Assembly (NCBI GenBank): GCA_029261035.1
Contig: JAJDCD010000023.1
Location: 38,501 to 102,500, forward strand
Origin: Candidatus Omnitrophota bacterium
GTDB lineage: Bacteria > Omnitrophota > Omnitrophia > Omnitrophales > JACROU01
Direction: 5' to 3'
Length of the DNA: 64,000 nucleotides
The first letter of the stretch is position 1, and the number at the start of each line of letters is the position of its first letter. The notes below the pieces were generated by a model. That model ran no database searches, had not been told where the DNA came from, and saw nothing but the letters and a program-made list of their open reading frames with translations. Positions 12,238 through 33,063 of the stretch are shown here, one piece after another. Position numbers and translations under genes: made by a program.

Positions 12238-12245
12238 TCTAAAAA

Positions 12246-14137: not shown

Positions 14138-14163
14138 ATGTGGGGTTTGAAAGTTGCGTCGTC

Positions 14164-14259: not shown

Positions 14260-14338
14260 TCCTCCTAGAGAACCAAACGTCTCGTTTTTTATTGGTTTAG
14301 GGCGAGGTGCTTCGCGCAATATGTTTTGCTAATAGCTA

Positions 14339-14410: not shown

Positions 14411-14437
14411 CTAAAAAGCTATAGACAAAGGAATATA

Positions 14438-14902: not shown

Positions 14903-14912
14903 GTTTTAATGG

Positions 14913-14937
14913 GGGACTGTCCCTTCGGGACTGTCCC
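14913..14937. repeat. Tandem GGGACTGTCCC-ttc-GGGACTGTCCC palindromes in the nuoE-nuoF spacer (variant of family A)
   Basis: Two copies of an 11-bp palindrome of the same GNGACTGTCNC form. Confidence 0.6.
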
Positions 14938-14966
14938 AGACTAAGTCTAGAAGGCAACTATTAATT

Positions 14967-16244
14967 ATGACGGAAAAATTAATTACAAAATATTTAGAAC
15001 TTACGGATGCGAATAAAATAGATGTGTTTGAATCTAAGGACGGCTATAGCCGTATCCAAAAAGTCTTAAAAGAATTAAAGCCAGAAGAAGTGGTTGATGA
15101 AGTTAAAAAATCAAACCTTCGAGGGTTGGGTGGAGCTGGTTTCTCTACTGGGATGAAGTGGAGCTTTATTCCTAAGGATGGAAAGAAACCTGTTTATCTT
15201 GTTTGTAATTGTGATGAGGCTGAGCCGGGCACTTTTAAAGACAGACATATTGTTACATCGACACCTCATTTATTGTTAGAGGGGATGATGATTGCTGCTT
15301 TTGCTGTTAATGCACATAAAGCTTACATATTTATTCGGGGTGAGTACGAACGTCCGTACGAACGTCTGGCAAAAGCGGTTGAAGAAGCTTACGCAAAAGG
15401 GTATTTAGGAAAAAATATTTTTGGTAGTGGTTATGATTTGGACATTGTTGTGCATCAAGGTGCTGGCGCTTATATTTGCGGAGAAGAATCGGCATTACTT
15501 GAAGCTCTTGAAGGAAAAAAAGGTTGGCCCAGATTAAAACCTCCTTTCCCTGCCGTTGTTGGGTTGTTTGGCTGCCCTACGGTGATCAACAATGTTGAGA
15601 CTTTATCGTATTTGCCTTTAGTGATGCAAGGTGGGGCAGATTGGTTTTCGAAATTAGCCGGAGAAGAAAAGTCTGGAGGAACGCGTCTTTTTTGTGTGAG
15701 TGGACACGTCAATAAACCTGGAATTTATGAGCTCCCTGTTGATACAACGTTAAGATCTTTGATTTATGATCATGCCGGAGGAATCCGAGGGGGTAAGCAA
15801 TTAAAAGCAGTTGTCCCTGGGGGTATTTCTGCCCCGATATTAAGTGCTGAAGAAATTGATGTCAAAATGGATTTCGATTCTTTGAGAGCTGCTGGAACCA
15901 TGGCGGGATCTGGGGGTGTGATGGTGATGGATGAAGATACCAATATGGTAGAAGCGTTGATGGTTGCTTCTCGTTTTTTTGCTCACGAATCTTGCGGCCA
16001 GTGTTCTCCTTGTCGTGAAGGAAGTGCCTGGCTTTATAAAATTGTGAAACGTATTAATGAAGGTGAAGGCCGTGTTGAGGACTTAGATAGTATGTTGTCT
16101 ATTGCAGGTAATATTTCTGGAACGACTATTTGTGCGTTAGGGGATGCTGCAGCAATGCCTGTCACAAGTTATATTAAAAAATTTAGAAGTGATTTTGAAG
16201 ATTATATTAGTGACTGTCACTTGCCTGTGGAAACACAGAGCTAA
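14967..16244 (+). CDS. nuoF: NADH-quinone oxidoreductase subunit F (NADH/FMN binding, 4Fe-4S)
   Basis: GLGGAGFSTGMKW, ESCGQCSPCREG motifs. A GTGACTGTCAC palindrome (16210..16220) lies within the last codons. Confidence 0.93.
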   Translation: MTEKLITKYLELTDANKIDVFESKDGYSRIQKVLKELKPEEVVDEVKKSNLRGLGGAGFSTGMKWSFIPKDGKKPVYLVCNCDEAEPGTFKDRHIVTSTPHLLLEGMMIAAFAVNAHKAYIFIRGEYERPYERLAKAVEEAYAKGYLGKNIFGSGYDLDIVVHQGAGAYICGEESALLEALEGKKGWPRLKPPFPAVVGLFGCPTVINNVETLSYLPLVMQGGADWFSKLAGEEKSGGTRLFCVSGHVNKPGIYELPVDTTLRSLIYDHAGGIRGGKQLKAVVPGGISAPILSAEEIDVKMDFDSLRAAGTMAGSGGVMVMDEDTNMVEALMVASRFFAHESCGQCSPCREGSAWLYKIVKRINEGEGRVEDLDSMLSIAGNISGTTICALGDAAAMPVTSYIKKFRSDFEDYISDCHLPVETQS

Positions 16245-16313
16245 GTGACTGTCACTATTAGGGCATAGAAAAAATTAGAGAAAGACGGTGACAGTCACTA
16301 AAGTGACAGTCAC
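16245..16313 (+). repeat. Family A palindrome array upstream of nuoG
   Basis: gtgactgtcac...ggtgacagtcac-taaa-gtgacagtcac-ctaaaagcc. Its architecture is collinear with 14339..14410. Confidence 0.75.
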
Positions 16314-16347
16314 CTAAAAGCCAATAGCTATAGGAGTTCGAAGAGTT

Positions 16348-17976
16348 ATGCCAAAAGTTACCATTGATGGTCATGAGATAGAGGTTTCTCAGGGAACAAC
16401 AATCATGCAAGCCACAAAACAGTTAGCAATTGAAGTGCCTTATTATTGTTGGCACCCAGGGCTTTCTGTTGCGGGAAATTGTCGTATGTGTCTTGTGGAT
16501 GTTGAAGGTCCTCCAAAGCCTCAAATTGCGTGTTACACCCAGGTTACTGAGGGAATGGTAGTCCATACGCAGTCTGAGAAGGCGAAGAAAGCACGTAAAG
16601 GAACTTTGGAGTTTTTGCTTTCGAATCATCCTTTGGATTGTCCCGTATGTGACCAAGCTGGAGAGTGTGACCTACAAAATTTTTATATGGATCACGGGCA
16701 ATATGATTCTCGATTTGATGAACAAAAACACAAAAAGAAAAAAGCTCAGCCCGTAGGGGAAAACGTGATGTTGGATCAAGAGCGCTGTGTTCTTTGTTCT
16801 CGCTGTGTTCGGTTTTGTGATGAAATTACAGGTACCGGAGAACTGGGTATTGTGAATCGAGGAAGTCATGAAGAGATTACCGTGTTTCCTGGCAAAGAGG
16901 TCAATAATGCTTACTCAGGTAATGTTGTTGATATTTGTCCTGTCGGGGCTTTAACGGATCGTGATTTTCGTTTTAAATGTCGTGTTTGGTATCTTTCCAG
17001 TCAAGACTCGGTATGTCCGGGGTGTTCTCAAGGTTGTAACATTCGTATTGATTCTAATTTATCTCGACCTCAGCATGGAGAGGGTGAGCGAGTGATGCGT
17101 TTAAAGCCAAGAGAAAACTTGAACGTGAATGATTACTGGATGTGTGACGAGGGTCGTTATAACTATAATTTTATTGATCGTAATCGTATTCAAACAGCTT
17201 CTCGAGTTAAAGAAGGGGTTGTTGAAGAAATTTTATTTGAGGATGCAGTTGATTCTTTGGCAAGTGTTTTAGGAGATGCAGTTAGAGAGCAGAGACATGG
17301 ACGTATCGGGGTTCTTGTTTCAACGCAGTTGACCAACGAAGATCTTTTCTTTGTTAAAAAGTTCTTCAAAACTAATCTGGGGATGGATGCAGTAGAATCT
17401 CGTTTTTCATTTCCTGAAGGAAGTAGTGATGACTTTTTGATTAAAGCAGATAAAAGCCCAAATACAGCAGGGGCACAAGCTTTAGAAGTAATTGCTTCTG
17501 GAACGTATCAATCTGGGGAAGATCTAATTGATAAAACGATTGCAGGAGAGTTTGATGTTTTAATTTCTTTCGGAGTCGATATTGATGGGTTGCTAGGAAA
17601 AGAAAAATTAGATGCGATTCTTGAGAAAGTAACATTACTTGCTTATGTTGGCAGTAATCACAATGAAACATCTAAAAAAGCACAGTTGGTTATTCCGAGT
17701 ACGGTTTATGCAGAAAAAGATGGAACCTTTACCAATGTTCATGGAAGGGTTCAGCGTATTTGGCCTGCATTTCCTCCTTTAGGACAAGCTAGACCCGAAT
17801 GGCAGATTATTTGTGACCTTTCAGAAAAGACAGGTTTCTCTGTGTCTGCAGATGATGCGGAATCTATTTTTAGTGAAATCACACAAACAGTTTCTTCTTT
17901 TCAAGGGTTGAGTTATGAAAAACTAGGAAAAGAAGGAAGTCTATTGAGCACAGTTAAAGAAACTGTAGAGAAATAG
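16348..17976 (+). CDS. nuoG: NADH-quinone oxidoreductase subunit G (short form)
   Basis: N-terminal 2Fe-2S CWHPGLSVAGNCRMCLV, 4Fe-4S cysteine clusters, molybdopterin-like domain. At 542 aa it is shorter than enterobacterial NuoG. Confidence 0.9.
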   Translation: MPKVTIDGHEIEVSQGTTIMQATKQLAIEVPYYCWHPGLSVAGNCRMCLVDVEGPPKPQIACYTQVTEGMVVHTQSEKAKKARKGTLEFLLSNHPLDCPVCDQAGECDLQNFYMDHGQYDSRFDEQKHKKKKAQPVGENVMLDQERCVLCSRCVRFCDEITGTGELGIVNRGSHEEITVFPGKEVNNAYSGNVVDICPVGALTDRDFRFKCRVWYLSSQDSVCPGCSQGCNIRIDSNLSRPQHGEGERVMRLKPRENLNVNDYWMCDEGRYNYNFIDRNRIQTASRVKEGVVEEILFEDAVDSLASVLGDAVREQRHGRIGVLVSTQLTNEDLFFVKKFFKTNLGMDAVESRFSFPEGSSDDFLIKADKSPNTAGAQALEVIASGTYQSGEDLIDKTIAGEFDVLISFGVDIDGLLGKEKLDAILEKVTLLAYVGSNHNETSKKAQLVIPSTVYAEKDGTFTNVHGRVQRIWPAFPPLGQARPEWQIICDLSEKTGFSVSADDAESIFSEITQTVSSFQGLSYEKLGKEGSLLSTVKETVEK

Positions 17977-17988
17977 TTAGAGGAACGT

Positions 17989-19080
17989 ATGAGTGTCGTA
18001 TTTATCCAATCAACATTACAACTTGTAGCCGTCTTCGCTTTTTTTATGGGAGTTCTGTCTTTGGCAGGGCTTCTAACTTGGGTTGAGAGAAAGCAAAGTG
18101 CCGTTATGCAAGATCGTATTGGAGCTAACCGAGCGGAGATTTTTGGATTTCGTTTTTTTGGTTTATTTCATATTATTGCAGATGCGATTAAGATGTTAAC
18201 CAAAGAGAGCTTTATTCCCGCAAAAGCAGATAAGTTTTTATATCAGCTTGCACCCATTATTTCTGTTTTTTTTGCCTTGATTACTTTTGCAGCGATTCCT
18301 TTCGGCAATGATCTGAAATTTGGAGAGTATGTCGTTCCTCTTCAAGGGCTTGATTTCAATGTGGGTCTTCTCTTTATTTTTGCGATGTTATCTATCGCGG
18401 TCTATGGAGTTATATTGGCCGGCTTTTCTTCGCAAAGTAACTTTTCTTTTTTAGGAGGTTTACGAGCAACCTCTCAGTTACTTGCTTACGAAATGGCCAT
18501 GGGAATTTCGATTATAGGCTTGGTTATGTGTTATGGATCTTTGAATTTAAATGAATTGGTTCATTCCCAGGGGGATTATTTGTGGGGTTGGTTACCAAAG
18601 TGGGGATTTTTTTTACAGCCTTTAGGCTTTATTATTTTTCTTATTGCAGGGATTGCAGAAAGTAAGCGAGTTCCTTTTGATATTCCAGAAGGAGAGTCTG
18701 AAATTGTAGGGTACTTTGTGGAATACAGTGGAATGCGATTCGGCTTATTTTTCTTAACAGATTTCTTGGAAACAATTTTAATTTCTTGTTTGGCGGCAGT
18801 TCTTTTTTTTGGCGGCTGGCAGGTTCCAGGGCTTTTTGAGGACGGTTTTCATTTTTGGAATGGGGTTGTCTGGAATTTACCTTCATTTGTAGTTACAATC
18901 ATTGGTGTTTTTGCTTTTATTTTTAAAATTGCTTTCTTTTGTTGGTTTTTAATGACGATTCGTTGGACATTGCCTCGATTCCGTTATGATCAATTGATGC
19001 ATTTGGGATGGAAAATTCTATTTCCACTCTCTATTGCAAATATTCTTATTACAGGAACCGTCATTCTTTTATTAAGCTAA
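17989..19080 (+). CDS. nuoH: NADH-quinone oxidoreductase subunit H
   Basis: 8-TM ND1 family protein with the conserved EGESE..GY..EYSG motif. Confidence 0.92.
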   Translation: MSVVFIQSTLQLVAVFAFFMGVLSLAGLLTWVERKQSAVMQDRIGANRAEIFGFRFFGLFHIIADAIKMLTKESFIPAKADKFLYQLAPIISVFFALITFAAIPFGNDLKFGEYVVPLQGLDFNVGLLFIFAMLSIAVYGVILAGFSSQSNFSFLGGLRATSQLLAYEMAMGISIIGLVMCYGSLNLNELVHSQGDYLWGWLPKWGFFLQPLGFIIFLIAGIAESKRVPFDIPEGESEIVGYFVEYSGMRFGLFFLTDFLETILISCLAAVLFFGGWQVPGLFEDGFHFWNGVVWNLPSFVVTIIGVFAFIFKIAFFCWFLMTIRWTLPRFRYDQLMHLGWKILFPLSIANILITGTVILLLS

Positions 19081-19117
19081 ATTAGCGCTAAAGAGAAAGT
19101 GTTAGACAGAGGACGTT

Positions 19118-19678
19118 ATGGCAACAATACAAGTTGAACGAAAAAAAATGAATTTGTTGGAGCGGATATATCTTCCGGAAATTATCCGAGGGTTTAGGAT
19201 TACAACATTTCACTTCTTTAGGAATCTTTTATTTCATCTGTTTCGAGCATTTGGATTTAAAAATTTCAAAGGTGCAGTTACGTTCCAATATCCAGAAGAA
19301 CAAAGGCCTTTGTCTGACCGTTTAAGAACGCGTCATCGTCTCATGCAAAGGGAAGATGGGTCTCCTCGTTGTGTGGCTTGTATGATGTGCGAAACCGTAT
19401 GTCCTGCTAAGTGTATCTACATTGAAGCTGCAGAACATCCAGATCCGAACATTGAAAAGATTCCTGCGAGTTTTGATATTGATTTAGGAAAATGTGTGTA
19501 TTGTGGTTTTTGTGTTGAAGCTTGTCCTGAAGATGCGATTCGTATGGATACTAAAATTTTAGATATCGCGTCATTAACGAGAGGCGGACTTTATTACACA
19601 ATGGAAGAACTTCTCCACCCAGAACAGCATGGCGCTAAAATAGAAGAAGCACGTAATAAGGTTCTCCCACCAAAGTAG
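19118..19678 (+). CDS. nuoI: NADH-quinone oxidoreductase subunit I (2x4Fe-4S)
   Basis: Two ferredoxin-type cysteine motifs, CVACMMCETVCP and CVYCGFCVEACP. Confidence 0.92.
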   Translation: MATIQVERKKMNLLERIYLPEIIRGFRITTFHFFRNLLFHLFRAFGFKNFKGAVTFQYPEEQRPLSDRLRTRHRLMQREDGSPRCVACMMCETVCPAKCIYIEAAEHPDPNIEKIPASFDIDLGKCVYCGFCVEACPEDAIRMDTKILDIASLTRGGLYYTMEELLHPEQHGAKIEEARNKVLPPK

Positions 19679-19752
19679 CCATCAATTGTTAGCTAAAAAC
19701 AAAACTATTATTCCAATAAATGTCATTGCGAAGCATAGACTAAAGAGTTGAA

Positions 19753-19791
19753 GCAATCTCGGATAAAAAGATTTCTTTTGCTTGAGATTGC
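19753..19791. terminator. Hairpin between convergent nuoI (+) and nuoN (-), a candidate bidirectional terminator
   Basis: gcaatctc...gagattgc 8-bp stem enclosing an inner aaaaga-tt-tctttt hairpin. It lies in the 200-bp gap where the two nuo half-operons converge. Confidence 0.4.
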
Positions 19792-19880
19792 CGCGGCTCA
19801 TTTGCTTGCACCTCCTGCCCAACAAGATGGCGGACAGGCGTAATGACAGGCTTTTAACGTATTTGCTGATATCTATTAGC

Positions 19881-21299
19881 TTAGAAAAGGCTTGTTGCAG
19901 CTTGCTGACATAAGTGAATAAATGGACCCGGAACAACTCCCAAGATAACTACGAAACCAACCGTTAAATAAAGAGAAATTTGAGTGGATAGAGGAATGTT
20001 AATAGGAGAAGTGTCTTTGGGTTTTTCAAGAAACATTTTTCCAACAATAGAAAGATAGTAATAAGCGCTTAAGATAGCCATAAAAATTCCAATCACAGCT
20101 AACCATAAAAAACCTTCATTAACAGCGCTGTACAGCACAAGTAGTTTTGCAACAAAGCCACTGGTGGGTGGGATGCCTGTTAAAGACAATAGAGAAACAA
20201 AAAGACATGTCGCAAGCATTGGAGACTTTTCTTTTAAGCCTTCATATTCGATGACACGATCATTTTCGGAATGATTTGCAAGTAATGAAAGCACAAAAAA
20301 AGCAGCTAAGTTTGTTGCGATTAAACTAAAGAGATAAAAAAGTACAAATCCTACTCCAATAGCATCGGAAGCTAAAAACCCCATTAGAATAAAGCCAGCA
20401 TGAGACATGCTTGAGAATCCAAACAACCTCTTAATATTTTTCTGTGGAATGGCTGCAAAGTTTGCGTAAACCAATGTAGCAGCGATGATGACCGCAAAAA
20501 TAATAGAAATCTGATTTTGGATTGGCAAAAAGATTTCATAGAAGATTCTCAAAAAAATTGTTATAGCGGCTGTTTTTGAAGCAATAGAAAAGAAGGCGGT
20601 AACAGGTGTTGGCGAACCTTCGTAAACATCTGGAGCCCAAACTTGAAAAGGAACAATGGCCATCTTAAATGTTAGAGAAATAAAGATAAAAAGAAAACCT
20701 ACAATGAGCAAAGTTTGATCGGATCCGCTAGAGAGCAAAGCATTTTTAATCGTTAGGATGTCTAAGCTAGCAGAACCTCCATAAATTAAACTCATCCCTA
20801 AGAGCCCAAAAGCAGTAGAGATAGCTCCAAATATTAAGTATTTGATACCTGCTTCAATCGATGCTCGTGCATGCTTTAGGTAAGAGGTCATGATATAACT
20901 GGAAAAAGTAATAATTTCGAGGCCAATAAAGATGAGTAAGAGGTTGGTGCTGGAGACACCGAAGCTCATGCCGATAATGGCGGCAATGAGAAGAAGATAA
21001 AACTCTCCTTGTCCGCCTACTAGTTTCGTTGCGTAGGTACGAATCATTAGAGATAGAAAAAAACCAATAATGAGAAATAAAACTTTTGCCAATTTAGAAA
21101 ATTCATCTTGAACATACATTCCTTCAAACAGGGATCCGGATTCGTTCCAAAAGAAAATTTGAGCAACTAAAGCTAAAAGAAAACCCAAAGCGGTTAGTAT
21201 GCCCAGAAGAGATCTTTTATTTTTAGACAGAAGTAAATCTGAAAATAGAACAATAAATAAGGTGGCAATGAGAAATATTTCAGTAATCATTAAAAACAT
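19881..21299 (-). CDS. nuoN: NADH-quinone oxidoreductase subunit N
   Basis: 472 aa, ~14 TM segments, ND2/NuoN antiporter-like family. Confidence 0.88.
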   Translation of the reverse strand: MFLMITEIFLIATLFIVLFSDLLLSKNKRSLLGILTALGFLLALVAQIFFWNESGSLFEGMYVQDEFSKLAKVLFLIIGFFLSLMIRTYATKLVGGQGEFYLLLIAAIIGMSFGVSSTNLLLIFIGLEIITFSSYIMTSYLKHARASIEAGIKYLIFGAISTAFGLLGMSLIYGGSASLDILTIKNALLSSGSDQTLLIVGFLFIFISLTFKMAIVPFQVWAPDVYEGSPTPVTAFFSIASKTAAITIFLRIFYEIFLPIQNQISIIFAVIIAATLVYANFAAIPQKNIKRLFGFSSMSHAGFILMGFLASDAIGVGFVLFYLFSLIATNLAAFFVLSLLANHSENDRVIEYEGLKEKSPMLATCLFVSLLSLTGIPPTSGFVAKLLVLYSAVNEGFLWLAVIGIFMAILSAYYYLSIVGKMFLEKPKDTSPINIPLSTQISLYLTVGFVVILGVVPGPFIHLCQQAATSLF

Positions 21300-21304
21300 A
21301 ATGC

Positions 21305-22813
21305 TTATATGAGCTCAGAATTTGTCTTAAGCTCTTCTCCTTTTTCTATGATCTTTAATTGTGTTAATCCATTTTCAAAATCTTTGAGTGCCAGCGTGGG
21401 ACAAAAACCAATTAAGAGCAAAAAGCCAATAAGAAGAAGGAACGGCACTTTACAAAAAAGACTTTTAACAGGTTCTTCTGTATTTTGGTGACTTTCTTTA
21501 ATGGGACCAAAGAAAATATTTCGAATTGCCCTAAACATATAAATTGCAGTTAATAGGACGCATATCAGAACTCCAATGGTCAGCCATTGATATTGATTCC
21601 AAACGGCAAATAAGATAACAAGTTCGCCTGCAAAGTTTGCAAACCCAGGAACGCTGGATGCGGCAAGTGCGGCTAAAGAGAAGCAGGTTGCGGTGAAAGG
21701 CCAATTAATTGCAAGCCCTCCTAAAGCATCAATCTGTGTTGTTCCCATTTTTCTTTCAACCAGTTCTGCAATCAGAAAGAGCAGTGCGACAAGCAACCCA
21801 TGAGAAAACATTACGAGCATAGCTCCTGCTGTACCTAAACTTGTAAAACAGGCGAGTCCAATAATAACAAAACCCATATGGCTTGAACTGGAATACCCAA
21901 TTAAATTTCTTAATTCTTTTTGCGCTAGAGCAATAAAACCGACGTAAACCAAATTCATCATAATCCACAAAGCAAGCCAAGGCATCCAAAGGGCTGCTGC
22001 ATCTGGCAACATAAGAAGTCCAAAGCGAATGAGCCCATAAGCACCTACTTTTTTAAGGACACCGGCAAGAAGCATACTTCCAGCGGTAGGAGCAGAAGAA
22101 TAACCAATAGGTCCCCACGCATGAAAAGGCCACACAGCAGAAAGAATTCCAAACCCGATTAAAAAGAAAGCGAAGAGCTTATGCTGAAGGGCTAAGCTTA
22201 AAGGGTTTGCTTGAAGATGTGCGCCGAGTTGAACCATATCCATTGTTTGAATGGCAGGTAAAAAATACAATCCGAGAAGGCCGACCAAAACAAATGCAGA
22301 AGCTAAAATCGCGTAGAGTGTAAATTGCATTGCTGCAAATTTTTTCTCTCCCCGACCCCAGTTGCTAATAAGAGGGTAAGAAACTAAAGCTTCAATTTCT
22401 AAAAAGAGAAAGAAGAAAAACAAATTAACAGATAAGAATGTGCCGTAAGCACCTAAAGTGAGTAAAAGGTATAAAAGGTAAAATCCTTTAGCGTCTTTTT
22501 GAATAGAGCTACACGCATATAGCCCAGCAAAGCTGACTAAAGAAGTTAAAACAATAAGCCAAACATTAATTCCATCGACCCCTAAGTGAAGATTGATTTC
22601 AGGGGTTTGAATCCATGATAATTGGGAGATGAATTGAAAGCTCGTGTTTGTTCTGTCTAATTTTAAAAGGACAAATAGAGCGAGTGCTAAACAAGCTGAG
22701 GAGCTAATCCAAGCTATGGTTTTGATTAGCTTCAATTGAGAAGAAGGGACTAAGGCCATTAAAGCCAGAGAAGCCATTGGGATTGCAATAAAGTAAAAAG
22801 ATAAATCAATCAT
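21305..22813 (-). CDS. nuoM: NADH-quinone oxidoreductase subunit M
   Basis: 502 aa, ND4/NuoM family. Confidence 0.88.
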   Translation of the reverse strand: MIDLSFYFIAIPMASLALMALVPSSQLKLIKTIAWISSSACLALALFVLLKLDRTNTSFQFISQLSWIQTPEINLHLGVDGINVWLIVLTSLVSFAGLYACSSIQKDAKGFYLLYLLLTLGAYGTFLSVNLFFFFLFLEIEALVSYPLISNWGRGEKKFAAMQFTLYAILASAFVLVGLLGLYFLPAIQTMDMVQLGAHLQANPLSLALQHKLFAFFLIGFGILSAVWPFHAWGPIGYSSAPTAGSMLLAGVLKKVGAYGLIRFGLLMLPDAAALWMPWLALWIMMNLVYVGFIALAQKELRNLIGYSSSSHMGFVIIGLACFTSLGTAGAMLVMFSHGLLVALLFLIAELVERKMGTTQIDALGGLAINWPFTATCFSLAALAASSVPGFANFAGELVILFAVWNQYQWLTIGVLICVLLTAIYMFRAIRNIFFGPIKESHQNTEEPVKSLFCKVPFLLLIGFLLLIGFCPTLALKDFENGLTQLKIIEKGEELKTNSELI

Positions 22814-22824
22814 AAAGAGTCTCG

Positions 22825-24687
22825 CTATAATTTAAATAAAATAACAACTAAAGTAAAAATAACTACAATTTGAACTGCAAGAATCAAAGCGTACGTTTGT
22901 ACATTGCCCGTTAATAATTTTCTAGAAACATTTCCTACTTGGTAAACAACGATCCCTGTCCAGTGACTGAGAGCTTTAATAGCAATCCACTCGTTTGTAA
23001 TATCGCAGAGGCGAGCAAAGGGTTGTTGGATTTTGGAAACGTAAAAATTATAAATTTCATCTATAAAATATTTTCTTTCAAATAGTGTGTAAAGAGGACC
23101 TAATCCTTTAGATAAAGGATCTTGAGATTGAGTTTTCCTCCCGTAAATTAAGTAGGAAGAAATAAGTCCGAATAAAATAACTCCTGTTGAAATGAGAGCG
23201 AGAAAATTTCCTTCAGTGCCATGATGAGATTCATGAGCAGCTCTTCCTAAGAGTTCTGGAATTCCAAAGAACCCTGCGAAGATGGAGAAAAAAGATAAAA
23301 CAATTAAAGGAAAGAGCAGAATAAAAGGAGATTCATGAATGTCGCTTGGTTTTCTTTGTGGGCCTAAAAAGGTGAGGCTAAAAACTCTCCCCATATAAAA
23401 CGAGGTTAGAAATGTTGTTCCTAAAACAACAATGAAAGCGAGCATGGAATGTCCATGCGCGAGTGTTAAGATTTCTTCTTTACTAAAAAACCCTGATGTT
23501 GGAAACAGACCGCAAAGAGCAAGAGTTCCGATTAAAAATGTGAGTGTGGTGATAGGCATCTTTTTTGAAAGGCCACCCATTTCAAATAAGTTCTGGGTAT
23601 GCACCGCATGAATGATACAGCCTGAGCCTAAGAATAAAAGGGCTTTAAAAAATCCATGTGTGAGCAGGTGATACATTCCCGAAACGGGTCCTGCGAGACC
23701 CATGGCGAGTACCATAAACCCGAGTTGACTCATCGTAGAGAATGCGAGCACACGTTTGATATCGCTTTGGCAAACCGCCATTGTTGCTGCTGTAATCGCT
23801 GAAAGACCCCCGATTATCGCAACAATAGTAAGTAATTCTTCAGAAATCGTAAAGATGAAAAAAGTTCTGGCTAGTAAATAAACACCTGCGGCAACCATGG
23901 TTGCCGCATGGATTAAAGCGCTGACGGGTGTGGGTCCTTCCATAGCGTCTGGCAACCAAACGTGTAATGGAAGTTGAGCGGACTTACCAATAACACCACA
24001 TAAAATAAGAAGTCCTGCTAAAAGAATAGCTCCAGAAGAGATGACGCCTAGTTGAACTTGAGTGGGAATACTTTGAGCGAGCCCTGCAAAGTCAACGGTT
24101 CTAGAAACTCCAGTTGGATCAGAAAGAAACCACAAAAATAAAATTCCTAATATAAAACCAAAATCACCAACGCGATTAACTAAAAAAGCTTTTTTACTGG
24201 CGTCAGCAGCACTGTCTTTTGAAAACCAAAAACCAATTAAAAGATAAGAAGCAAGCCCAACTAATTCCCAGAAAATAAAGGTTTGAACAAAATTATTAGA
24301 AAACACAATGCCGAGCATAGCCGATGCGAAAAGTGCTAAGTAAGCAAAAAATCGAGAGTAGCCTTTATCTTCTTCCATATAACCCATCGAGAAAATAAAA
24401 ATAAGACTTCCTACTCCAGAAACCAATAACCCCATCAAAATAGAGAGTTGATCGAACAGAAGCCCCAGTTCAAAGTGAAGCCCCATTATAGAAATCCAAG
24501 GAACGGATATAACTTGAGGAAAACTGCTTGGATTGGATTGCATTTGCATGAAGAGTTGAACAATCAATACGAACGGAATAAGAAGGCTACCCACAGAAAT
24601 CCATCCACACAGCTTTTTCCATCGAAACAGAAAAAGACTGATTAAAGCAAAGCCTATAAGTGGAGAAAGAATGATGAGTGAAGTCAT
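22825..24687 (-). CDS. nuoL: NADH-quinone oxidoreductase subunit L
   Basis: 620 aa, ND5/NuoL family. Confidence 0.9.
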   Translation of the reverse strand: MTSLIILSPLIGFALISLFLFRWKKLCGWISVGSLLIPFVLIVQLFMQMQSNPSSFPQVISVPWISIMGLHFELGLLFDQLSILMGLLVSGVGSLIFIFSMGYMEEDKGYSRFFAYLALFASAMLGIVFSNNFVQTFIFWELVGLASYLLIGFWFSKDSAADASKKAFLVNRVGDFGFILGILFLWFLSDPTGVSRTVDFAGLAQSIPTQVQLGVISSGAILLAGLLILCGVIGKSAQLPLHVWLPDAMEGPTPVSALIHAATMVAAGVYLLARTFFIFTISEELLTIVAIIGGLSAITAATMAVCQSDIKRVLAFSTMSQLGFMVLAMGLAGPVSGMYHLLTHGFFKALLFLGSGCIIHAVHTQNLFEMGGLSKKMPITTLTFLIGTLALCGLFPTSGFFSKEEILTLAHGHSMLAFIVVLGTTFLTSFYMGRVFSLTFLGPQRKPSDIHESPFILLFPLIVLSFFSIFAGFFGIPELLGRAAHESHHGTEGNFLALISTGVILFGLISSYLIYGRKTQSQDPLSKGLGPLYTLFERKYFIDEIYNFYVSKIQQPFARLCDITNEWIAIKALSHWTGIVVYQVGNVSRKLLTGNVQTYALILAVQIVVIFTLVVILFKL

Positions 24688-24989
24688 TATTGTTTTAAAT
24701 CCGTAAAGTCTGTTACATCGATTGTTTTTTGAGTTCTAAAAAGTAAAATACAAATAGCCAGTCCTATGGCAACTTCTCCGGCGGCAATGGCCATAGAGAA
24801 TAGGGTGACAATTTGGCCTTCCAAATTACCATGAGCTTGAGAGAAAACAACAAAACTTAAATTCACAGCATTAAATAAGAGTTCTATAGAAAGTAAAACT
24901 AAAATTGCATTTTTTCGTGTAAAAATGCCAATCAGACCAATGGCAAAGAGAACGAAAGCGACTGTTAAATAATGAGATAAAGGAATCAT
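24687..24989 (-). CDS. nuoK: NADH-quinone oxidoreductase subunit K
   Basis: 100 aa, 3 TM segments, ND4L family. Confidence 0.9.
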   Translation of the reverse strand: MIPLSHYLTVAFVLFAIGLIGIFTRKNAILVLLSIELLFNAVNLSFVVFSQAHGNLEGQIVTLFSMAIAAGEVAIGLAICILLFRTQKTIDVTDFTDLKQ

Positions 24990-25487
24990 TTACAAATCTT
25001 TCTTCGCTAAAACTACCGAGCCAATAATGGCTACGAGCAAAATTAAAGATAAAAGTTCAAATGGAAGTAAGTATTTTGAAAATAAGAGTTTTCCTAAGCT
25101 TTCAACGGTACCTTCAACTAATACGATGTTTTCAGACGTAGTTTCTTTGAAAGAACGAACCAACATAAAAAGTCCTGCAAGAGAAAGAATGCTCAGTCCA
25201 AGACTTAGGCCATAGCGAACCGGATTTTTCCAGAAAACAGGAGACTCATTGTTGTATCCAAGCAACATGAGTACAAATAGAAACAGGACTAAAATAGCGC
25301 CAGCATACAGAGTGATATGGATTATGGCGACGAAATAAGCCTTTAAAAGCAGAAAAAGGATAGCTAAAGAGAACATGCCTACAAGAAAGCTCAGCACGCA
25401 ATAAACGGGATTTCTTAAAGTTATCGCTAAAAGTGCCGAAAATAGCAGGATACTCGAAAATAAATAAAAGGATGTTGTTTCTAGCAT
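24990..25487 (-). CDS. nuoJ: NADH-quinone oxidoreductase subunit J
   Basis: 165 aa, ND6 family; carries the VLYAGAILVLFLFVLMLL motif. Confidence 0.88.
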   Translation of the reverse strand: MLETTSFYLFSSILLFSALLAITLRNPVYCVLSFLVGMFSLAILFLLLKAYFVAIIHITLYAGAILVLFLFVLMLLGYNNESPVFWKNPVRYGLSLGLSILSLAGLFMLVRSFKETTSENIVLVEGTVESLGKLLFSKYLLPFELLSLILLVAIIGSVVLAKKDL

Positions 25488-25700: not shown

Positions 25701-28700
25701 ATGAGGTTTTTTTTAGTATTTCAGCAACAATTGAGAGTCCTAACCTATTTCCTTATTCTTACCTTCGGACTCGACTCTATTTCCCTGGCCCATGCTCAAT
25801 CTGTTACTGCATCCGTGAACGTTGCACCGAGCATTGGGTTGGGGGATTATTCTTCTTTTCCAGATAATCTTGGAAATATCATTCAAAAAAACGAAATATC
25901 TAAAAATGCCTTTAATCTGATTCACTTACAAGACGCCCACGCTAATCCTGAAGCCCAAAAAAAAATTGCGGAACTCATTCGATACTTTTCAGAAGAACAA
26001 GGGTATAACACTGTTTTTGTTGAAGGAGCGTATGGGAGATTGGATAAACGTTATATTGAATTTACAGATGATTTTTCATTAAATCAAAAAATTGCAGAGC
26101 GCCTCACTGCTTTGGGAGAGTTTACAGCGCCGGACGTTTATTTATCAAAAAATAAAAAAAGCACCCTTCAATTTTTAGGAATCGAAGACCCCCAACTTTA
26201 CAGAAAAAATGTAACGCATTTAAAAAAGATATACCAATCTAGAGAAGAAATTGAAAGTTGGATTGAAGCAAAAAAATTAATATTGGATCGAAAAAACTCT
26301 CGTCTAAAAAACAAAAACCTTTTCTATTTATTTAAAACATTTTTAGAACTTTCTGAAAAAACGAACAATTTCAGCCGTCATTTAGTTCAATTAAATACGA
26401 TCTCCAAAAGAGAGTTGGGAAGAGACCTTCAGGATGCGAAAGAACAAATAGAATATCCTAATATTGTTCGATTTTTAAGACTCTTTAAAGAGCAAAAGCT
26501 GGACCGCGAAAAAGCTCGTGTGGAGTGGGAGGAAATAGTAAAAACAATCTCGAAACAAAAGCAGTTCTTAAAGAGAGCACCTTCTTTTAAAGAACTCAAC
26601 GATCTAAATGTTAGGGTTCTTCTAGAAACCTTAGTGGAGGAGCAGGGGGTTGATTTTAAAGGGTTTCCCATTTTTTCAAAGTACGCAAAGGCTCTTATTT
26701 ATCAACAAGAAATGGATGGGGCGGCTTTGTTTGCAGAGCTTAACACGTGGCTCTTATCATTAATCAATCATTTTAGTTTGGAAGCTCAAAGCAAGAATCT
26801 TTTCAAAGAAATTCAGCTTTTTATTTTAATTAAAAAACTTTTGAAGCTCGAGTTAAAAAGAGAAGAGTGGGGTCTGATTAAGGATGAAGAAATCAAAGAT
26901 AAAGAAGTGCAAAACTTAATTGATGAAGCGCTTCTTTTTTATAAAGCTGCTGAGAAAAGAGAACAACCCTTTTTGGAACAAATTCAGAATCAGATCAAAA
27001 ATAAAAAAATAAAAAAAGCAATTTTACTTACGGGAGGATTTCATACTCCTGCGTTATTGAAACATGCAAATGAAGATGGCTGGAATTCTGTGGTTATTGC
27101 TCCTCAGCTTACTTCAGCAGTGGATCAAGATGATTATTTCAAAAATTTTATGGGAAGAGACCCTAAAGACATTGATGTCTCACAAGTAGTAACTCAGCCT
27201 TATTCTATTTCTCCAGAAACGGCAGTTGCGCTTGGTGTCGATCTTGCTAATAGACAGCAATTAGTAAACACTATCACTAGAGAGTTTGTGAAGGCGAGTA
27301 GCCTTGGGGAAAGGAAAGAAATCCTTCCGGGGTTTTTTGAAGAACGCCCTCTTTTTATTCCTAAAGACGGTCGTATTTTACGTTCCAATGAGAGACTTTT
27401 ACTTCAAGCAGGAGACCACTATTTTTATGTTGATGAAAAAAGAGTTGTTCAGGTGGATTCGACTGGGAAAAAAATAAAGCAAATTAAAATTGCAAATAAG
27501 CCTTTAAAACGATGGGAACTCTCTGAAGGAAAGAAGATGGTTTCTCGATCGCATTGGGCGTCTAATGAGAAAGAATTTATATGGTTGAAACACTATTTTC
27601 AATGGCAGAGATTGGCTAAAAAGGTTTATTTGAACGACCCGGTACTTATTGGACAAGGAGTTACATCTAAAGTTTACTCAATGAACGTTGCTATGCCTCA
27701 AGACGGTGTTGTTAGAACCTTAATAGGCACAGAATTTGTGAAGAAAAAAGACAAGACGATAGGCAGAAAAAGGGATTATGGTTTAGTGGGATATGAGGTT
27801 CAAAAAGGAGATTTCCAAGATGAGCCTGTTCCTGTGGGGGCAGTTAGAAAGTTGATTATAAAGACAAGCTCATTTAGCACAAAACGCTCTATTGCTTATC
27901 AAGAACTGATTCGCGATCGATTTGCGAGTACTTTTATTGCAAAGACTGCAGAGTTGCCTTCGAGGCACCCTGTAGCGCATGAGTTAGGATTAGAGCAGTT
28001 TGGCCGCGAACGCATCTTGCTTCAAGAGCCTTTGATTCCTTTAAGCCAAATTTTAAGAGAAGCTCGTGGCTATGAGAGACAATATTGGGCTAATCAATTT
28101 GTTCGGAGAGTGGAGGATTTTTGGAAGAGAGGCTACGTAGACTTAGATGCCAGGACAGATAATTGGGGCGTTAACAGCGAGGGTAAGCTTGTGTTTCATG
28201 ACTTTGATTTCGTTATGAGCTTATCGGAGATGGATAAGGGAATTAAGGGTAAAAGAGAAGACAAGTTAACCGTGTTGAGTCGTAAAATTCAGTTTTTTGC
28301 TAATTTTATTATTAATAATGTGTCATTTTTATATTCTTTAGATCCTGAGTTGGCTAAGCACTTTTATGAGCGTGTTGTTCATATTTCTTTTGAGTTAGAA
28401 AATAAGCAGAAGCTTTATTTGTTTAATGATATTTTGTCTAACGCGGCCGGGACATCTAAGCAATTAAAAAACTGGGAACAGCATTGGAAACGTATTGAGG
28501 TATTTGCTAAGCAGCTGATTCAAGCACATGAAGAACAAGCTTCTAAAGAAAAGCGAAAAGAAATAGTGAAAGATGTTTTCAATTTTTTAAGAGCTTCAGT
28601 GAAGAAAAGGCAAGCATTGATGACTCAGGTTTTACGTTTAGTAGCTCCGGCTTCACAAAGCGAACTTAAAGGAGATCAAATTAGAAGGCAAAAAGGGCGC

Positions 28701-30785
28701 ATCATTAAAAAATGGGCAGAGAAATATTCAGAGCCCTTCGCTTCGAGAGATCATGATTTTGAAAAATTTATAGAGCTAACAACAAAGTTAGTTACAGAAG
28801 GCTTTAGTGGCTTTGTGGATGGGGATCGAGCAGCAATTAGAGACATTATTGACAGTCGTCCTGTGCAATATGAAGGTGTTAGAGAGGTTGTTGTTGGTGA
28901 GATTGTGAGAATAATGAATGGCATCAACTCTTCTACATTAAATGCATTTTCCAGAAAACAAATAAATAATTTTTTCAGTTTTTTGGTTGCTAGAGATTTT
29001 TTCAAAAGACATTTTACTGCAGGAGAATCATTCGATGGCGTTCAAGAAATATATATAGGTTCTAAAGCGCCTCATTTTCAATTTCAGATAGCATCCAACC
29101 AATTGCAACCCTACCACTTTGTCGTTTTGCGTGTCCCTTTTGGAGATAGAGGAAAACATCGAGTGGTGATTTTTGACATGAGCGTTTTGAATGGCGAAAA
29201 AAGCCAAACTCAATTTAGAGGTATTTCTGAACAGGCTTATTCTAGCTTGTTATGGCAACCCTTCCGAGTAGATGGACGCGTTGTGGAAATGAGTTTGAAT
29301 ATAGATTCGTCTCAACAGCAGACGATGGAATTGCCGGAGGATGAAATTGGAGGAACTCGGCTACCTTATTTCTCTCAGACCATGATTGGAAGACTCGTTG
29401 ATTGGATGGGGGATATACAGGCTTTTGAAGCTCAGTTTGCAGACACTCAAGTTGTTCCACATGCTCCTCGAGAGGTTCCTGTTTTTACAAAACCAAGGCA
29501 TTCCAGATATAGACCCAGACATCATAGAATGGGGTCTCGGTCTATTCGAGCTAGAAAGAGAAGAAATATACAATTAGATCGGAATGATATAGAAACTAAT
29601 GTTAGACCAGGAAACTCTGCGAACTCGAGAACGTATGTTGATGCCACTCAAGCACCTAAAACGCGAGCAAAGTCAGAGGTTGTGAAAAAAAGACGTCGTT
29701 TAGGGTTGGGAAGACGGCCAGTAGAATTGCCGCCGTTGTCACCCAGAACTTCTTTTTCACCACCGATTCCAACGTCTGTGCCTAATCCGTTAAAACGATT
29801 TAAACCTATGTCGTTACCGCAAGGAGGTCTAACGTCATTTAATCGCCCTCCAGCTAGACAAAACCCAACTCCTCAGGGAGAAGGGCCGAACGTTGCGGAT
29901 CTTAGGAATCAGCATAAACGTATGTTTGGAAAAAGGCTTTCTATTTGGGATCATAGGATGCCTCCTCAGCAAGAGAAAAGACGCGGATTGAGGGGAAATA
30001 GTTTAGGCTCTATTGTTTCTGTGGCTAATCTTGTTGCAGATAAAATTGTTGCTCCTCAAGACTTAGAAAATGAAGTCATTGTATCAGCTGTTTTGAGACA
30101 GGAAGTATCTTTGGAACAACTCTTTAAACTTAGAGAGCTCTTTGATCAGGTGGGAGGAGATGGTTTTTATAAGAAATTGTTTGGCGCCAACTCCAACTTA
30201 AGTGTTGTTCTGATGCAATCTTCTCAAGTGACGGATGCGTTGGCCGCGGGGATAGATTGGGCTTTGGTGAATCAACCGAATTTAATTCTTCGAATTATTA
30301 ATGACGGAACGCAAAATGAGCAGATTGAACAATTGAAGCGCAAGGTGAAAGATTTAAATGTAAATCATAAAGCAGAGAGATTTAAAATCGTGATGTCTGA
30401 TTTGAGCGTTGTTGATACAATTAATTATATTCTCCGAGACAAAGGGAATCTCTATAAAGTGGCTCATACTTTAGATTCCGGTTTGGCAAGAATAGATGTA
30501 ACCAAGCGAACTGTTGTTTTGGCTAAGGAGCAAACCTTAGAAGATATTGATAAAGGGCTTTCCTCTAAAGTTATATTCATTCCTTCTGAAGTTGAAGGCT
30601 CAGCTCTTTATCAATTTGGAATTTCTACGGCTTTAGCAGCAAATGAGGGACGATTAACAGCAGACCTAAAAGAACATCTACGAATCTCCAAATCTGGACA
30701 TTTTGTTTTCCAGGATTTTTCTCGAATCCTTCATGAGCTGATGACAGCACACCAGGCTTTAAAAGCTATTCTACAAGCAGCCTAG
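25701..30785 (+). CDS. Giant secreted multidomain protein (1,694 aa): signal peptide, N-domain paralogous to the 34..8568 protein, kinase-like domain, basic/Pro-rich low-complexity tract, C-terminal domain
   Basis: Signal-peptide-like N-terminus (…LILTFGLDSISLAHAQS). LIHLQDAHANPEAQ / VFVEG / GGFHTPALL align with LLEDAHGYIEAQ / VGVEG / GGFHTQGL in the first giant protein. See findings for the kinase-like motifs. Confidence 0.85.
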   Translation: MRFFLVFQQQLRVLTYFLILTFGLDSISLAHAQSVTASVNVAPSIGLGDYSSFPDNLGNIIQKNEISKNAFNLIHLQDAHANPEAQKKIAELIRYFSEEQGYNTVFVEGAYGRLDKRYIEFTDDFSLNQKIAERLTALGEFTAPDVYLSKNKKSTLQFLGIEDPQLYRKNVTHLKKIYQSREEIESWIEAKKLILDRKNSRLKNKNLFYLFKTFLELSEKTNNFSRHLVQLNTISKRELGRDLQDAKEQIEYPNIVRFLRLFKEQKLDREKARVEWEEIVKTISKQKQFLKRAPSFKELNDLNVRVLLETLVEEQGVDFKGFPIFSKYAKALIYQQEMDGAALFAELNTWLLSLINHFSLEAQSKNLFKEIQLFILIKKLLKLELKREEWGLIKDEEIKDKEVQNLIDEALLFYKAAEKREQPFLEQIQNQIKNKKIKKAILLTGGFHTPALLKHANEDGWNSVVIAPQLTSAVDQDDYFKNFMGRDPKDIDVSQVVTQPYSISPETAVALGVDLANRQQLVNTITREFVKASSLGERKEILPGFFEERPLFIPKDGRILRSNERLLLQAGDHYFYVDEKRVVQVDSTGKKIKQIKIANKPLKRWELSEGKKMVSRSHWASNEKEFIWLKHYFQWQRLAKKVYLNDPVLIGQGVTSKVYSMNVAMPQDGVVRTLIGTEFVKKKDKTIGRKRDYGLVGYEVQKGDFQDEPVPVGAVRKLIIKTSSFSTKRSIAYQELIRDRFASTFIAKTAELPSRHPVAHELGLEQFGRERILLQEPLIPLSQILREARGYERQYWANQFVRRVEDFWKRGYVDLDARTDNWGVNSEGKLVFHDFDFVMSLSEMDKGIKGKREDKLTVLSRKIQFFANFIINNVSFLYSLDPELAKHFYERVVHISFELENKQKLYLFNDILSNAAGTSKQLKNWEQHWKRIEVFAKQLIQAHEEQASKEKRKEIVKDVFNFLRASVKKRQALMTQVLRLVAPASQSELKGDQIRRQKGRIIKKWAEKYSEPFASRDHDFEKFIELTTKLVTEGFSGFVDGDRAAIRDIIDSRPVQYEGVREVVVGEIVRIMNGINSSTLNAFSRKQINNFFSFLVARDFFKRHFTAGESFDGVQEIYIGSKAPHFQFQIASNQLQPYHFVVLRVPFGDRGKHRVVIFDMSVLNGEKSQTQFRGISEQAYSSLLWQPFRVDGRVVEMSLNIDSSQQQTMELPEDEIGGTRLPYFSQTMIGRLVDWMGDIQAFEAQFADTQVVPHAPREVPVFTKPRHSRYRPRHHRMGSRSIRARKRRNIQLDRNDIETNVRPGNSANSRTYVDATQAPKTRAKSEVVKKRRRLGLGRRPVELPPLSPRTSFSPPIPTSVPNPLKRFKPMSLPQGGLTSFNRPPARQNPTPQGEGPNVADLRNQHKRMFGKRLSIWDHRMPPQQEKRRGLRGNSLGSIVSVANLVADKIVAPQDLENEVIVSAVLRQEVSLEQLFKLRELFDQVGGDGFYKKLFGANSNLSVVLMQSSQVTDALAAGIDWALVNQPNLILRIINDGTQNEQIEQLKRKVKDLNVNHKAERFKIVMSDLSVVDTINYILRDKGNLYKVAHTLDSGLARIDVTKRTVVLAKEQTLEDIDKGLSSKVIFIPSEVEGSALYQFGISTALAANEGRLTADLKEHLRISKSGHFVFQDFSRILHELMTAHQALKAILQAA
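27600..28330 (+). other. Atypical protein-kinase-like domain inside the 25701..30785 protein
   Basis: Glycine-rich loop IGQGVTSKVYS, downstream VKKK lysines, catalytic-loop-like VDLDARTDNWGV (D-x4-N spacing as in HRDLKPEN), and HDFDF in the DFG position 14 residues later. Confidence 0.5.
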
Positions 30786-31491: not shown

Positions 31492-33063
31492 CTAGATGAC
31501 GCGTTCGTATTCGTCTTTTTTAAGTTTCCAGACAGGCTTACCGCAAAAACGATCCCCTTCAGGGCAGAATGGAGTTACTTTAGCATTGAAGCGCATATGA
31601 CATGGAGGGTATATGTGTTTAACTAAATTAGGTTGTACTTTTTCGACTTGTTTTACCTCATCGAGACAGTTGTGCCAAATTTCTTCTTGGGCGGTATAAC
31701 ATAGACGGTGAACCCATTTGTGATGAAAGTTCAGCAAATCCCCAGACTCCACAAAACGAATAGGAAAAGAGTTTGGTACCAGATAAGTAGCAAACTCTTC
31801 CGAAACACCCAAGTCGAGTAATTTGTTAATTCCTTCCCAAATTTTTTGATGGGCCTTTTCATAGATTTCCGTTGCTTCAGCACTTTCTGAAATGAGAGGA
31901 GGAGTGATGAAGTCTACTTTATCTCGAACAAATTGAGTGATGAAAATAGGGCGAGACCCTGGAGTCATTCGATGACGTTGATCTTGAGAGTCTGCGGTGT
32001 GGCTTATTTTTTTTCTAAAAGTGAAGTGAGGATGCAGCATCGTTCGTGTTAGCTTCGCGTGCGATGTTAAATTTAAAGCTTCTTTGTAGTACGTATTTTT
32101 AGCTGGGGACATAGCCGCTTCGATGGCGTCTTCATTTGAAAGCTTTTCTTTTGGGATACCCAATACAGTTCGGACGGCTTCTCCCATTGTCTCTTCCGCA
32201 TTTGTTTTGTAGTCGATCAAAAAAGAAGTGCTATTGCCGAGATTCTTATCAAACTCTTCAACAAATTGTCGTGAGAGACCCTTGTTGCTTTGGTTGTGAA
32301 ACTGATGAAATAATTGGTATTCCGGAGTTTCTTCGATTGGGATAGAGTCTTCAATGTTTTGAAAGAAAAGAGGGTCTTGTTCTGTTACGGCGGCAATCAT
32401 TTTTCCAACGACTAACTTTTGTTCATGAGGAGTGTCATAGGAATTAACCAGTTTGTTGTAACGGTGCAATGTTAACCCGCTGATAGTGTGGTACAGGTGA
32501 GCGTGTGTTGCAACAGGCAAAATATAACGAGCGACTTCCTGAGTTTTTTTCTTAAGAGAACTCTGCCAACGTTTTTCTTCCGTATTTCTATTGGGAAATA
32601 CTTTTGAATACGATTTTAGTGTAGGCGTCATGAGAACTTCATTTAACTTGTGATACGTATCCATTTGGAAATTGGCGATTGATTCGTAAACATCAAGTGC
32701 TTCGCCTTCCAATGGAGGAACCCAAAAAGTACCTGGTTTTACAGAAACGTAGCGTTGACTGACTTGTTCTGAATTGTAGAACATATGACTATGTAGAAAG
32801 GCCCAAATAAATTGACGAGAAACTTTCTCGAGGACAAACTGAAATGTTGCATGCTGAATTGTTGTGTGATGCCCTGCTTGGTAGATACTCGTGGCAATAC
32901 GGTCTCTTAAATCCCGAGAACGCTCGTCTTTGTCGACGTCTTCAGAGTAGATTACCTTAGAAGAATAACAGGTTCGAGCTGTGGCAACGGCATTATTGTA
33001 AGGCGTTTTAAAGATATTAATCAGCTTTACTTCAGGTTGTGTGGGAGTCAATGTTGTTTGCAT
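31492..33063 (-). CDS. thyX: FAD-dependent thymidylate synthase ThyX, double-length (tandem-domain) form
   Basis: 523 aa with an RHRM..S ThyX-type motif. This length matches the ~530-aa ThyX characteristic of Chlamydiae. Confidence 0.7.
   Translation of the reverse strand: MQTTLTPTQPEVKLINIFKTPYNNAVATARTCYSSKVIYSEDVDKDERSRDLRDRIATSIYQAGHHTTIQHATFQFVLEKVSRQFIWAFLHSHMFYNSEQVSQRYVSVKPGTFWVPPLEGEALDVYESIANFQMDTYHKLNEVLMTPTLKSYSKVFPNRNTEEKRWQSSLKKKTQEVARYILPVATHAHLYHTISGLTLHRYNKLVNSYDTPHEQKLVVGKMIAAVTEQDPLFFQNIEDSIPIEETPEYQLFHQFHNQSNKGLSRQFVEEFDKNLGNSTSFLIDYKTNAEETMGEAVRTVLGIPKEKLSNEDAIEAAMSPAKNTYYKEALNLTSHAKLTRTMLHPHFTFRKKISHTADSQDQRHRMTPGSRPIFITQFVRDKVDFITPPLISESAEATEIYEKAHQKIWEGINKLLDLGVSEEFATYLVPNSFPIRFVESGDLLNFHHKWVHRLCYTAQEEIWHNCLDEVKQVEKVQPNLVKHIYPPCHMRFNAKVTPFCPEGDRFCGKPVWKLKKDEYERVI

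Follow-up and report, generated by a model that had tools for sequence, protein, structure and literature searches.

The question raised by this locus is whether a long, apparently exported protein of an uncultured bacterium can carry a genuine protein kinase domain and, if so, what such a domain might do. The stretch of DNA analysed here (hereafter, the window) comprises 64,000 nucleotides (nt) of contig JAJDCD010000023.1 from a Candidatus Omnitrophota bacterium, and the element of interest is P0001, a protein of 1694 amino acids (aa) encoded on the forward strand. An earlier reading of the letters alone (the sequence-only reading) had noticed four kinase-like motifs in this protein, i.e., a Gly-rich loop, a VKKKDK stretch, a catalytic loop and HDFDF, and had seen in it the profile of a translocated effector. 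All four motifs are indeed present, in the single frame of one open reading frame (ORF, positions 25701..30785). Judging from sequence comparison and structure prediction, P0001 is probably a Sec-exported, modular Omnitrophota protein with a catalytically competent, atypical kinase domain at aa ~645-895, whose nearest solved relative is AceK.

Motifs and predicted active site

The ORF and the elements of its kinase-like core are the following:

25701..30785, + strand: complete ORF of P0001, 1694 aa; homologues known
27633..28385, + strand: protein-kinase-like core, aa ~645-895 (Pfam, phmmer, profile, fold model, Foldseek and hhalign); nearest AceK
27645..27680, + strand: Gly-rich loop LIGQGVTSKVYS, aa 649-660, between predicted beta1 (aa 648-652) and beta2 (aa 656-664)
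27729..27827, + strand: disordered, lineage-specific insertion, aa 677-709, with a predicted local distance difference test (pLDDT) below 50; contains VKKKDK and lies outside the conserved fold
27843..27869, + strand: predicted beta3 VRKLIIKTS, aa 715-723, with K721 at nt 27861-27863 (alignment and fold model)
28131..28172, + strand: catalytic loop GYVDLDARTDNWGV, aa 811-824; D816, catalytic Asp equivalent; N821, metal-binding Asn equivalent
28197..28211, + strand: HDFDF, aa 833-837; D834, equivalent to the DFG Asp and AceK D475; D836, equivalent to AceK D477

The conserved module that holds this core was aligned from seven family copies (alignment A1). Eight residues (G653, K721, R729, D816, N821, H833, D834 and D836) are kept in six of the seven copies, and the sequence-only reading had correctly assigned the Gly-rich loop, the D-x4-N pair and the Asp in the DFG position. 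In the Gly-rich loop, the segment LIGQGVT falls between two predicted strands, and all six active-looking copies keep G653. The same reading had put forward VKKKDK (aa 680-685, nt 27738-27755; same reading frame as the other three motifs) as the source of the beta3 lysine, but this stretch lies in the disordered insertion, which is absent or unrelated in the homologues, and the assignment was discarded. K721 is instead the candidate ATP-anchoring beta3 lysine: it sits on a predicted strand, is invariant in six copies, is replaced by Glu in the remaining one (P0026, see below), and aligns with the VIK lysine of the protein P0028, in a canonical-looking G-x-x-S-x-V-Y...V-I-K stretch.

As for the catalytic loop, the alignments place D816 and N821 opposite the HRD Asp and the Asn of protein kinases, and opposite D457 and N462 of AceK. 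The residue at +2 after the catalytic Asp is Arg or Lys in the family, as in protein kinases, and this D-x-[RK]-x-x-N loop resembles that of Ser/Thr kinases. In the phmmer, profile and hhalign alignments, D834 occupies the position of the metal-binding Asp of DFG, and the distance of 13 residues from N821 to D834 matches that of protein kinases.

Evidence for a protein kinase fold

The analysis supports aa ~645-895 of P0001 as a real, very divergent domain of predicted protein kinase fold, nearest to AceK (isocitrate dehydrogenase kinase/phosphatase). At the sequence level, AceK_kinase is the only Pfam kinase family that matches P0001 (aa 772-853, E-value 0.005, 16.9 bits). The same alignment is recovered by phmmer against PDB sequences at E 1.3, with D816, N821, D834 and D836 standing opposite AceK D457, N462, D475 and D477 at identical spacing (+5, +13, +2). 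In AceK, these four residues make up the catalytic triad and a further active-site Asp (PMC3747045). The A1 profile matches 219 PDB sequences at E<10 and, among the 60 listed, all are protein kinases; the four alignments shown cover helix E, the HRD and N positions, and DFG. Furthermore, when A1 was compared by hhalign with six ABC1-type units of P0027, a protein of Chromera velia, the probability was 82% and E 1e-5 over the stretch from helix E through the catalytic loop to DFG. A homologue search with the kinase domain alone returned nothing at E <= 0.01 among 3795 candidates, and scans with NCBIfam and PADLOC gave no match.

At the structural level, an AlphaFold2 model of aa 560-1250 has a mean pLDDT of 65, with values of 70-90 in the core, and its elements appear in the expected order: beta1, Gly loop and beta2 (aa 648-664); the disordered insertion (aa 677-709); beta3 (aa 715-723); helix C (aa 729-738); beta5 (aa 771-775); helix E (aa 791-809); the catalytic loop; and the DFD strands. 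The core shows the bilobal organization of kinases, with a beta-rich N-lobe and a helical C-lobe. When the model was compared with the PDB using Foldseek, AceK chains ranked 1-8 (E 1.5e-5), followed by kinases. The kinase-like fold that had been suspected from the motifs is thus borne out by the structure prediction, its Foldseek matches and the protein kinase matches of the family profile.

Conservation and a predicted pseudokinase

One family member was particularly informative regarding the active site:

10001-15433 of locus L002 (contig k141_187506 / Ga0315338_1000003): P0026, architecture-equivalent protein from a sister genome

P0026 is collinear with P0001 over the full length (30% identity over aa 11-1175; 39% over aa 1431-1694). 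It is changed at 12 of the 36 positions that are invariant in the other six copies, and its substitutions include G653N, K721E, R729E, D816S, H833T, D834K and D836R; it keeps structural residues, among them Q775, P777, W808, N821 and G823. Five of the six predicted active-site residues are changed (hypergeometric P = 0.01). Its sequence leads to the prediction that P0026 is a pseudokinase derived from an active enzyme, and the joint loss of the motif residues indicates, indirectly, that G653, K721, D816, D834 and D836 form one functional site. On the other hand, NuoD is 81% identical between the two genomes, versus ~30% for P0001 and P0026 themselves, which points to a very fast evolution of the P0001-type protein.

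Predicted export signal and domain architecture

Around the core, the following features can be distinguished in P0001:

25701..25796, + strand: signal-like N-terminus, aa 1-32 (sequence rules; same n-h-c layout in all complete relatives)
25848..27305, + strand: TIKI/TraB/erythromycin-esterase/ChaN-like domain with a large helical insertion, aa ~50-535
27378..29240, + strand: conserved ~620-aa module, aa 560-1180 (beta-rich lead-in, kinase-like core, helical region and small beta domain)
29043..29225, + strand: small beta domain closing the module, aa ~1115-1175; G1120, H1139, D1159 and S1168 invariant
29448..30020, + strand: Arg/Pro-rich basic tract, aa 1250-1440 (composition)
30018..30782, + strand: C-terminal domain, aa 1440-1694; 39% identity to P0026

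The ATG of P0001 is preceded, 5 nt upstream, by a Shine-Dalgarno GAGG. The N-terminus of the protein presents R2 and R12, a hydrophobic core at aa 13-24 and A-H-A ahead of Q33; the hydrophobic segment at aa ~11-30 is the sole one in the protein, with no other membrane segment. The n-h-c/AXA layout of a Sec signal is found at the start of every complete relative of P0001. By its shape, this N-terminus is plausibly a Sec signal peptide and not a type III signal; the protein would then be exported from the cytoplasm, and the proposal that it is secreted appears plausible. In this respect, a signal peptide or transmembrane helices have been described on 94% of long Omnitrophota proteins (2026 preprint, 10.64898/2026.06.07.730766).

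The sequence-only reading had missed the N-terminal TIKI/TraB/EreA-like domain, the ~620-aa module and the pseudokinase P0026. The N-terminal domain was modelled with a pLDDT of 81.9 and a predicted template modelling score of 0.75, and it combines the alpha/beta TIKI fold with the His/Glu set of the TIKI/TraB/EreA/ChaN superfamily. Its invariant residues are H80, Q86, E108, G109, R420 and G445-G446-F447-H448, among which H80, E108, R420 and GGFH448 are invariant across 17 sequences of the domain. No Pfam family matches it, and searches of PDB sequences with both the sequence and a profile found nothing significant. Among its structural relatives are HopBA1, RRSP and PMT, which are effector or toxin domains, and also EreC, ChaN and TraB. 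The domain is common to at least 24 long proteins; 7 of the 8 named sources are metagenome-assembled genomes (MAGs) of Omnitrophica/Omnitrophota, and the other one is Endomicrobium sp. In these relatives, the cargo behind the domain is varied: TPR, PGK, PPDK, UDPGP, GDH, ParB-N and receiver domains. A hydrolytic or self-processing function is conceivable for the N-terminal domain. A signal-like N-terminus and the same TIKI-like head are also found in the first giant ORF of the window (34-8568, + strand, 2844 aa), which lacks the kinase module and shows no Pfam family above threshold in its remaining ~2400 aa.

Regarding the module, P0025 (L001 3366-10313; Omnitrophota MAG JACROU010000044) carries it twice in tandem, both times with intact catalytic residues; in the window, the A1 profile found no second kinase module. 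The invariant residues of the small beta domain are kept even in the pseudokinase P0026, and this domain could be a second catalytic or acceptor element. The basic, Pro/Arg-rich tract described by the sequence-only reading is present, with 16% Arg, 13% Pro and a net charge of +31. At aa 1250, where the model ends, and in the ~70 residues before it, the pLDDT is below 50; a tract of similar composition is present in P0026. Finally, the C-terminal domain is common only to P0026 among the 28 proteins compared, belongs to no known family, and has no significant match in Pfam or among PDB sequences.

Comparison with known systems

P0001 shares with AceK (Pfam PF06315; PDB 3eps, 3lc6) the catalytic Asp, the Asn, the metal Asp and the second Asp of D-x-D, all at identical spacing, together with the apparent absence of a canonical activation segment. 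Nevertheless, there are clear differences: (i) P0001 falls below the Pfam cut-off (16.9 vs. 29.3 bits) and identity is only about 10-13%; (ii) P0001 shows no sign of the AceK regulatory domain and no sequence similarity to AceK outside the kinase core; and (iii) the P0001 domain sits between a TIKI-like domain and a basic tract in a signal-bearing Omnitrophota protein of 1694 aa. With the Ser/Thr kinases (PF00069; PAK4, CK1, ROCK), the common points are the Gly-rich loop, the beta3 Lys, D-x-[RK]-x-x-N and the Asp in the DFG position. By contrast, P0001 has DFD for DFG and VDLD for HRD, an apparent lack of APE and of the conserved helix C Glu, and a variable beta2-beta3 insertion. PF00069 is not reported for P0001 at E<=1; for P0025, it gives E 0.025 and 14.4 bits versus a cut-off of 31.7. 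In view of these likenesses and differences, we rate the P0001 core as a new family, in a new architecture, inside the known protein-kinase-like superfamily.

Secreted effector kinases such as OspG/NleH, HopBF1 and the Legionella LegK proteins combine a kinase fold that is divergent or minimal with release from the producing cell, as P0001 would. These effectors come from pathogens of eukaryotes and use type III or type IV signals, whereas P0001 bears a Sec-type signal and belongs to an uncultured member of the Omnitrophota.

The long and giant proteins of Omnitrophota (West-Roberts et al., 2023 preprint; 10.64898/2026.06.07.730766) are of the same phylum, place enzyme domains of cytoplasmic type behind a signal peptide, and contain divergent domains found mainly through structure. 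P0001, with 1694 aa and one hydrophobic segment, is far under the 10,000-aa class. The kinases described in these two preprints are histidine-kinase, ROK and PPDK domains; as for the TraB-like head domain, the term TraB is absent from both of them. Lastly, the N-terminal domain resembles TIKI, TraB, erythromycin esterase and ChaN in its His, Glu and His, arranged as x-A-H ... E-G ... G-G-F-H, a set similar to the 2His/2Glu site of the superfamily (PMC6254334), and differs from this superfamily in its lack of a Pfam match, its ~250-aa helical insertion and its use as a common head for varied cargo.

Proposed mechanism and alternative explanations

In an active domain, ATP would be held by the Gly-rich loop (G651/G653) and the beta3 K721, N821 and D834 would bind Mg2+, D816 would act on the acceptor hydroxyl, and D836 would help at the gamma-phosphate, like D477 in AceK. 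We infer from the sequence that the domain transfers phosphate and that a protein is the acceptor. No APE motif or canonical activation segment was seen by eye after HDFDF; this apparent absence, together with the conserved flanking module, suggests that the ~620-aa module probably serves to recognise a folded partner as substrate, and not a short peptide, as described for AceK and its own substrate (PMC3747045; PMC3415841). Given the scarcity of ATP in the extracellular space, the site of action would be either at or inside a partner cell (host or prey), or the producing cell before or during export.

Several observations weigh against a competent, exported kinase: (i) no Pfam kinase model reaches its curated cut-off for P0001, as indicated above for AceK_kinase; (ii) the model of the module, built from 7 aligned sequences, is only moderately confident; (iii) the clustering of the active-site residues in a cleft is deduced from the alignment and the order of the strands, not from model coordinates; (iv) the predicted helix C has no conserved acidic residue, with E735 being peculiar to P0001 and R729 being the residue conserved in this helix; (v) P0026, a protein of the same type, persists in the absence of the catalytic residues, which indicates that catalysis is dispensable for this protein type; (vi) it is not obvious where an enzyme that depends on ATP would obtain it once exported by a Sec signal; (vii) the signal was called by sequence rules, not by a signal-peptide predictor; and (viii) the housekeeping gene neighbourhoods offer no functional hint. 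West-Roberts et al. (2023 preprint) noted the same paradox of export and cofactor supply for glycolytic domains in the giant proteins of Omnitrophota.

Some of these points feed the rival explanation that the kinase fold serves another role, i.e., as an ATP-binding scaffold or ATPase, as an enzyme of other nucleotide chemistry (AMPylation, glutamylation), or as a pseudokinase in the making. There are precedents: a scaffold or ATPase role of this kind has been proposed for RIO-type proteins, and SelO and SidJ are examples of kinase-fold enzymes with other chemistry such as AMPylation or glutamylation. This explanation would account for the missing helix C Glu, for the apparent absence, by eye, of an activation segment and APE motif, and for the loss in P0026 of the Gly loop, K721, D816, D834 and D836 with retention of the fold-defining residues; against it, the phosphotransfer set of Lys, Asp, Asn and Asp is intact, at AceK/kinase spacing, in P0001 and five other copies, and the Arg/Lys at +2 of the catalytic Asp is that of protein kinases. 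On balance, we regard another role as unlikely, albeit deserving real consideration. A kinase of small molecules, lipids or sugars, acting on an envelope or nutrient molecule in the manner of the Kdo, aminoglycoside or choline kinases that belong to this superfamily, is distinctly improbable: the nearest non-bacterial sequence match, P0027, is of the ABC1/UbiB type, and relatives sharing the N-terminal domain carry metabolic enzyme domains (PGK, PPDK, UDPGP), but the best matches in both structure and sequence are AceK and Ser/Thr kinases, not APH/ChoK, and no Pfam APH or ChoK model matches P0001 at E<=1.

The idea of the sequence-only reading, namely an effector kinase secreted through a type III system and delivered into a eukaryotic host, did not survive the analysis and is given very little credence. 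It agrees with the kinase fold, the basic disordered tract, the multidomain build and the presence of HopBA1, RRSP and PMT among the structural relatives of the N-terminal domain. However, the N-terminus is Sec-like and is kept as such in all relatives; none of the window ORFs scanned against Pfam belongs to a secretion-system family, type III included; the genes described beside the long proteins of Omnitrophota are type II/type IV pilus genes, not type III genes (10.64898/2026.06.07.730766); and the relatives of the N-terminal domain include many non-effectors (EreC, ChaN, TraB). Least credible of all is a chance resemblance of the motifs in a non-kinase protein; every individual sequence match does fall under curated thresholds, but this explanation was rejected in view of the Pfam AceK_kinase match, the kinase matches of the family profile, and a predicted fold like that of AceK and kinases.

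Returning to the exported, AceK-like kinase, where could it act? Omnitrophota are described as ultra-small and with host-dependent traits (PMC10066038), which makes an action of P0001 on a partner cell conceivable, yet unproven. A more daring version, offered as a speculation and doubtful as a whole, is that ultra-small, host-dependent Omnitrophota export modular proteins with a TIKI-like head and ATP-dependent cargo; P0001 would carry its kinase, active and AceK-like, onto or into the partner cell, where ATP is present. It would then be an effector kinase of a new family that depends on Sec and not on type III secretion, and the polybasic Arg/Pro tract would aid in binding or crossing the target envelope.

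If active, the P0001 domain would represent a new and very rare protein-kinase-like family unseen by curated models, and AceK-like kinases would reach beyond their single known role in metabolic control. It would also bear on the paradox of enzyme domains with cytoplasmic cofactors lying behind export signals in long proteins of uncultured, probably host-dependent Omnitrophota. With its 1.7 kaa, one signal and a clear catalytic site, P0001 is a tractable test case in comparison with the giant proteins, which are hard to express. The TIKI-like head domain, common to many long Omnitrophota proteins, is a separate lead.

Family distribution and genomic context

When 1.84 billion representatives were scanned in full with HMMER, eight family proteins emerged: P0001, six further bacterial proteins and one ABC1-type protein of Chromera. 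Three of the six further bacterial members are in named Omnitrophota MAGs; the others share either the N-terminal domain family or a contig with an Omnitrophota-like NuoD. All bacterial members (7/7) are long proteins of Omnitrophota type with signal-like N-termini. The NuoD encoded in the P0001 window is 71-73% identical to that of Omnitrophica MAGs, which places the window in the Omnitrophota. The only non-bacterial match, P0027 (UniRef100_A0A0G4HWU2), has 2436 aa and six tandem ABC1-type kinase-like units, and no eukaryotic sequence matches the family more closely than its stretch between catalytic loop and DFG.

For the scans of loci, an alignment of the core (A2) was used, as the whole-module alignment was too divergent. 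Pattern scans with A2 over 185,579 species genomes and the Joint Genome Institute (JGI) metagenomes gave a single locus in the genomes and two in the metagenomes. All three were already known: those of P0025, P0003 and probably P0004 (locus L005, from the matching ORF length). These loci of the paralogue lineage, L001 (P0025), L004 (P0003) and L005 (a 2279-aa ORF, probably P0004), display synteny across their three genomes: an aminopeptidase P (M24) gene, pepP, is found upstream, and a gene with a PriCT_1 domain is located downstream on the opposite strand. This pepP/PriCT_1 arrangement at L001, L004 and L005 provides no functional clue. The gene neighbourhoods of P0001 and P0026 show no synteny.

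The genes of the window are housekeeping genes (complex I, thyX, aconitase-family genes, cytochrome c assembly, fatty-acid synthesis and gltB). Those for complex I (11713-25487) are arranged in two convergent blocks, with the B-to-I-type subunits on the + strand (11713-19678) and the J-to-N-type subunits on the - strand (19881-25487); the P0001 ORF starts 213 nt from the nuoJ-type gene, in divergent orientation. On the other side of P0001, positions 31492-33063 (- strand) encode a ThyX-type protein of 523 aa in which the Thy1 model matches twice, suggesting a duplicated or fused thymidylate synthase. At 61316-63949 (- strand), a protein of 877 aa unites a histidine-phosphatase domain with a weak match similar to rRNA adenine dimethylase, an unusual fusion.

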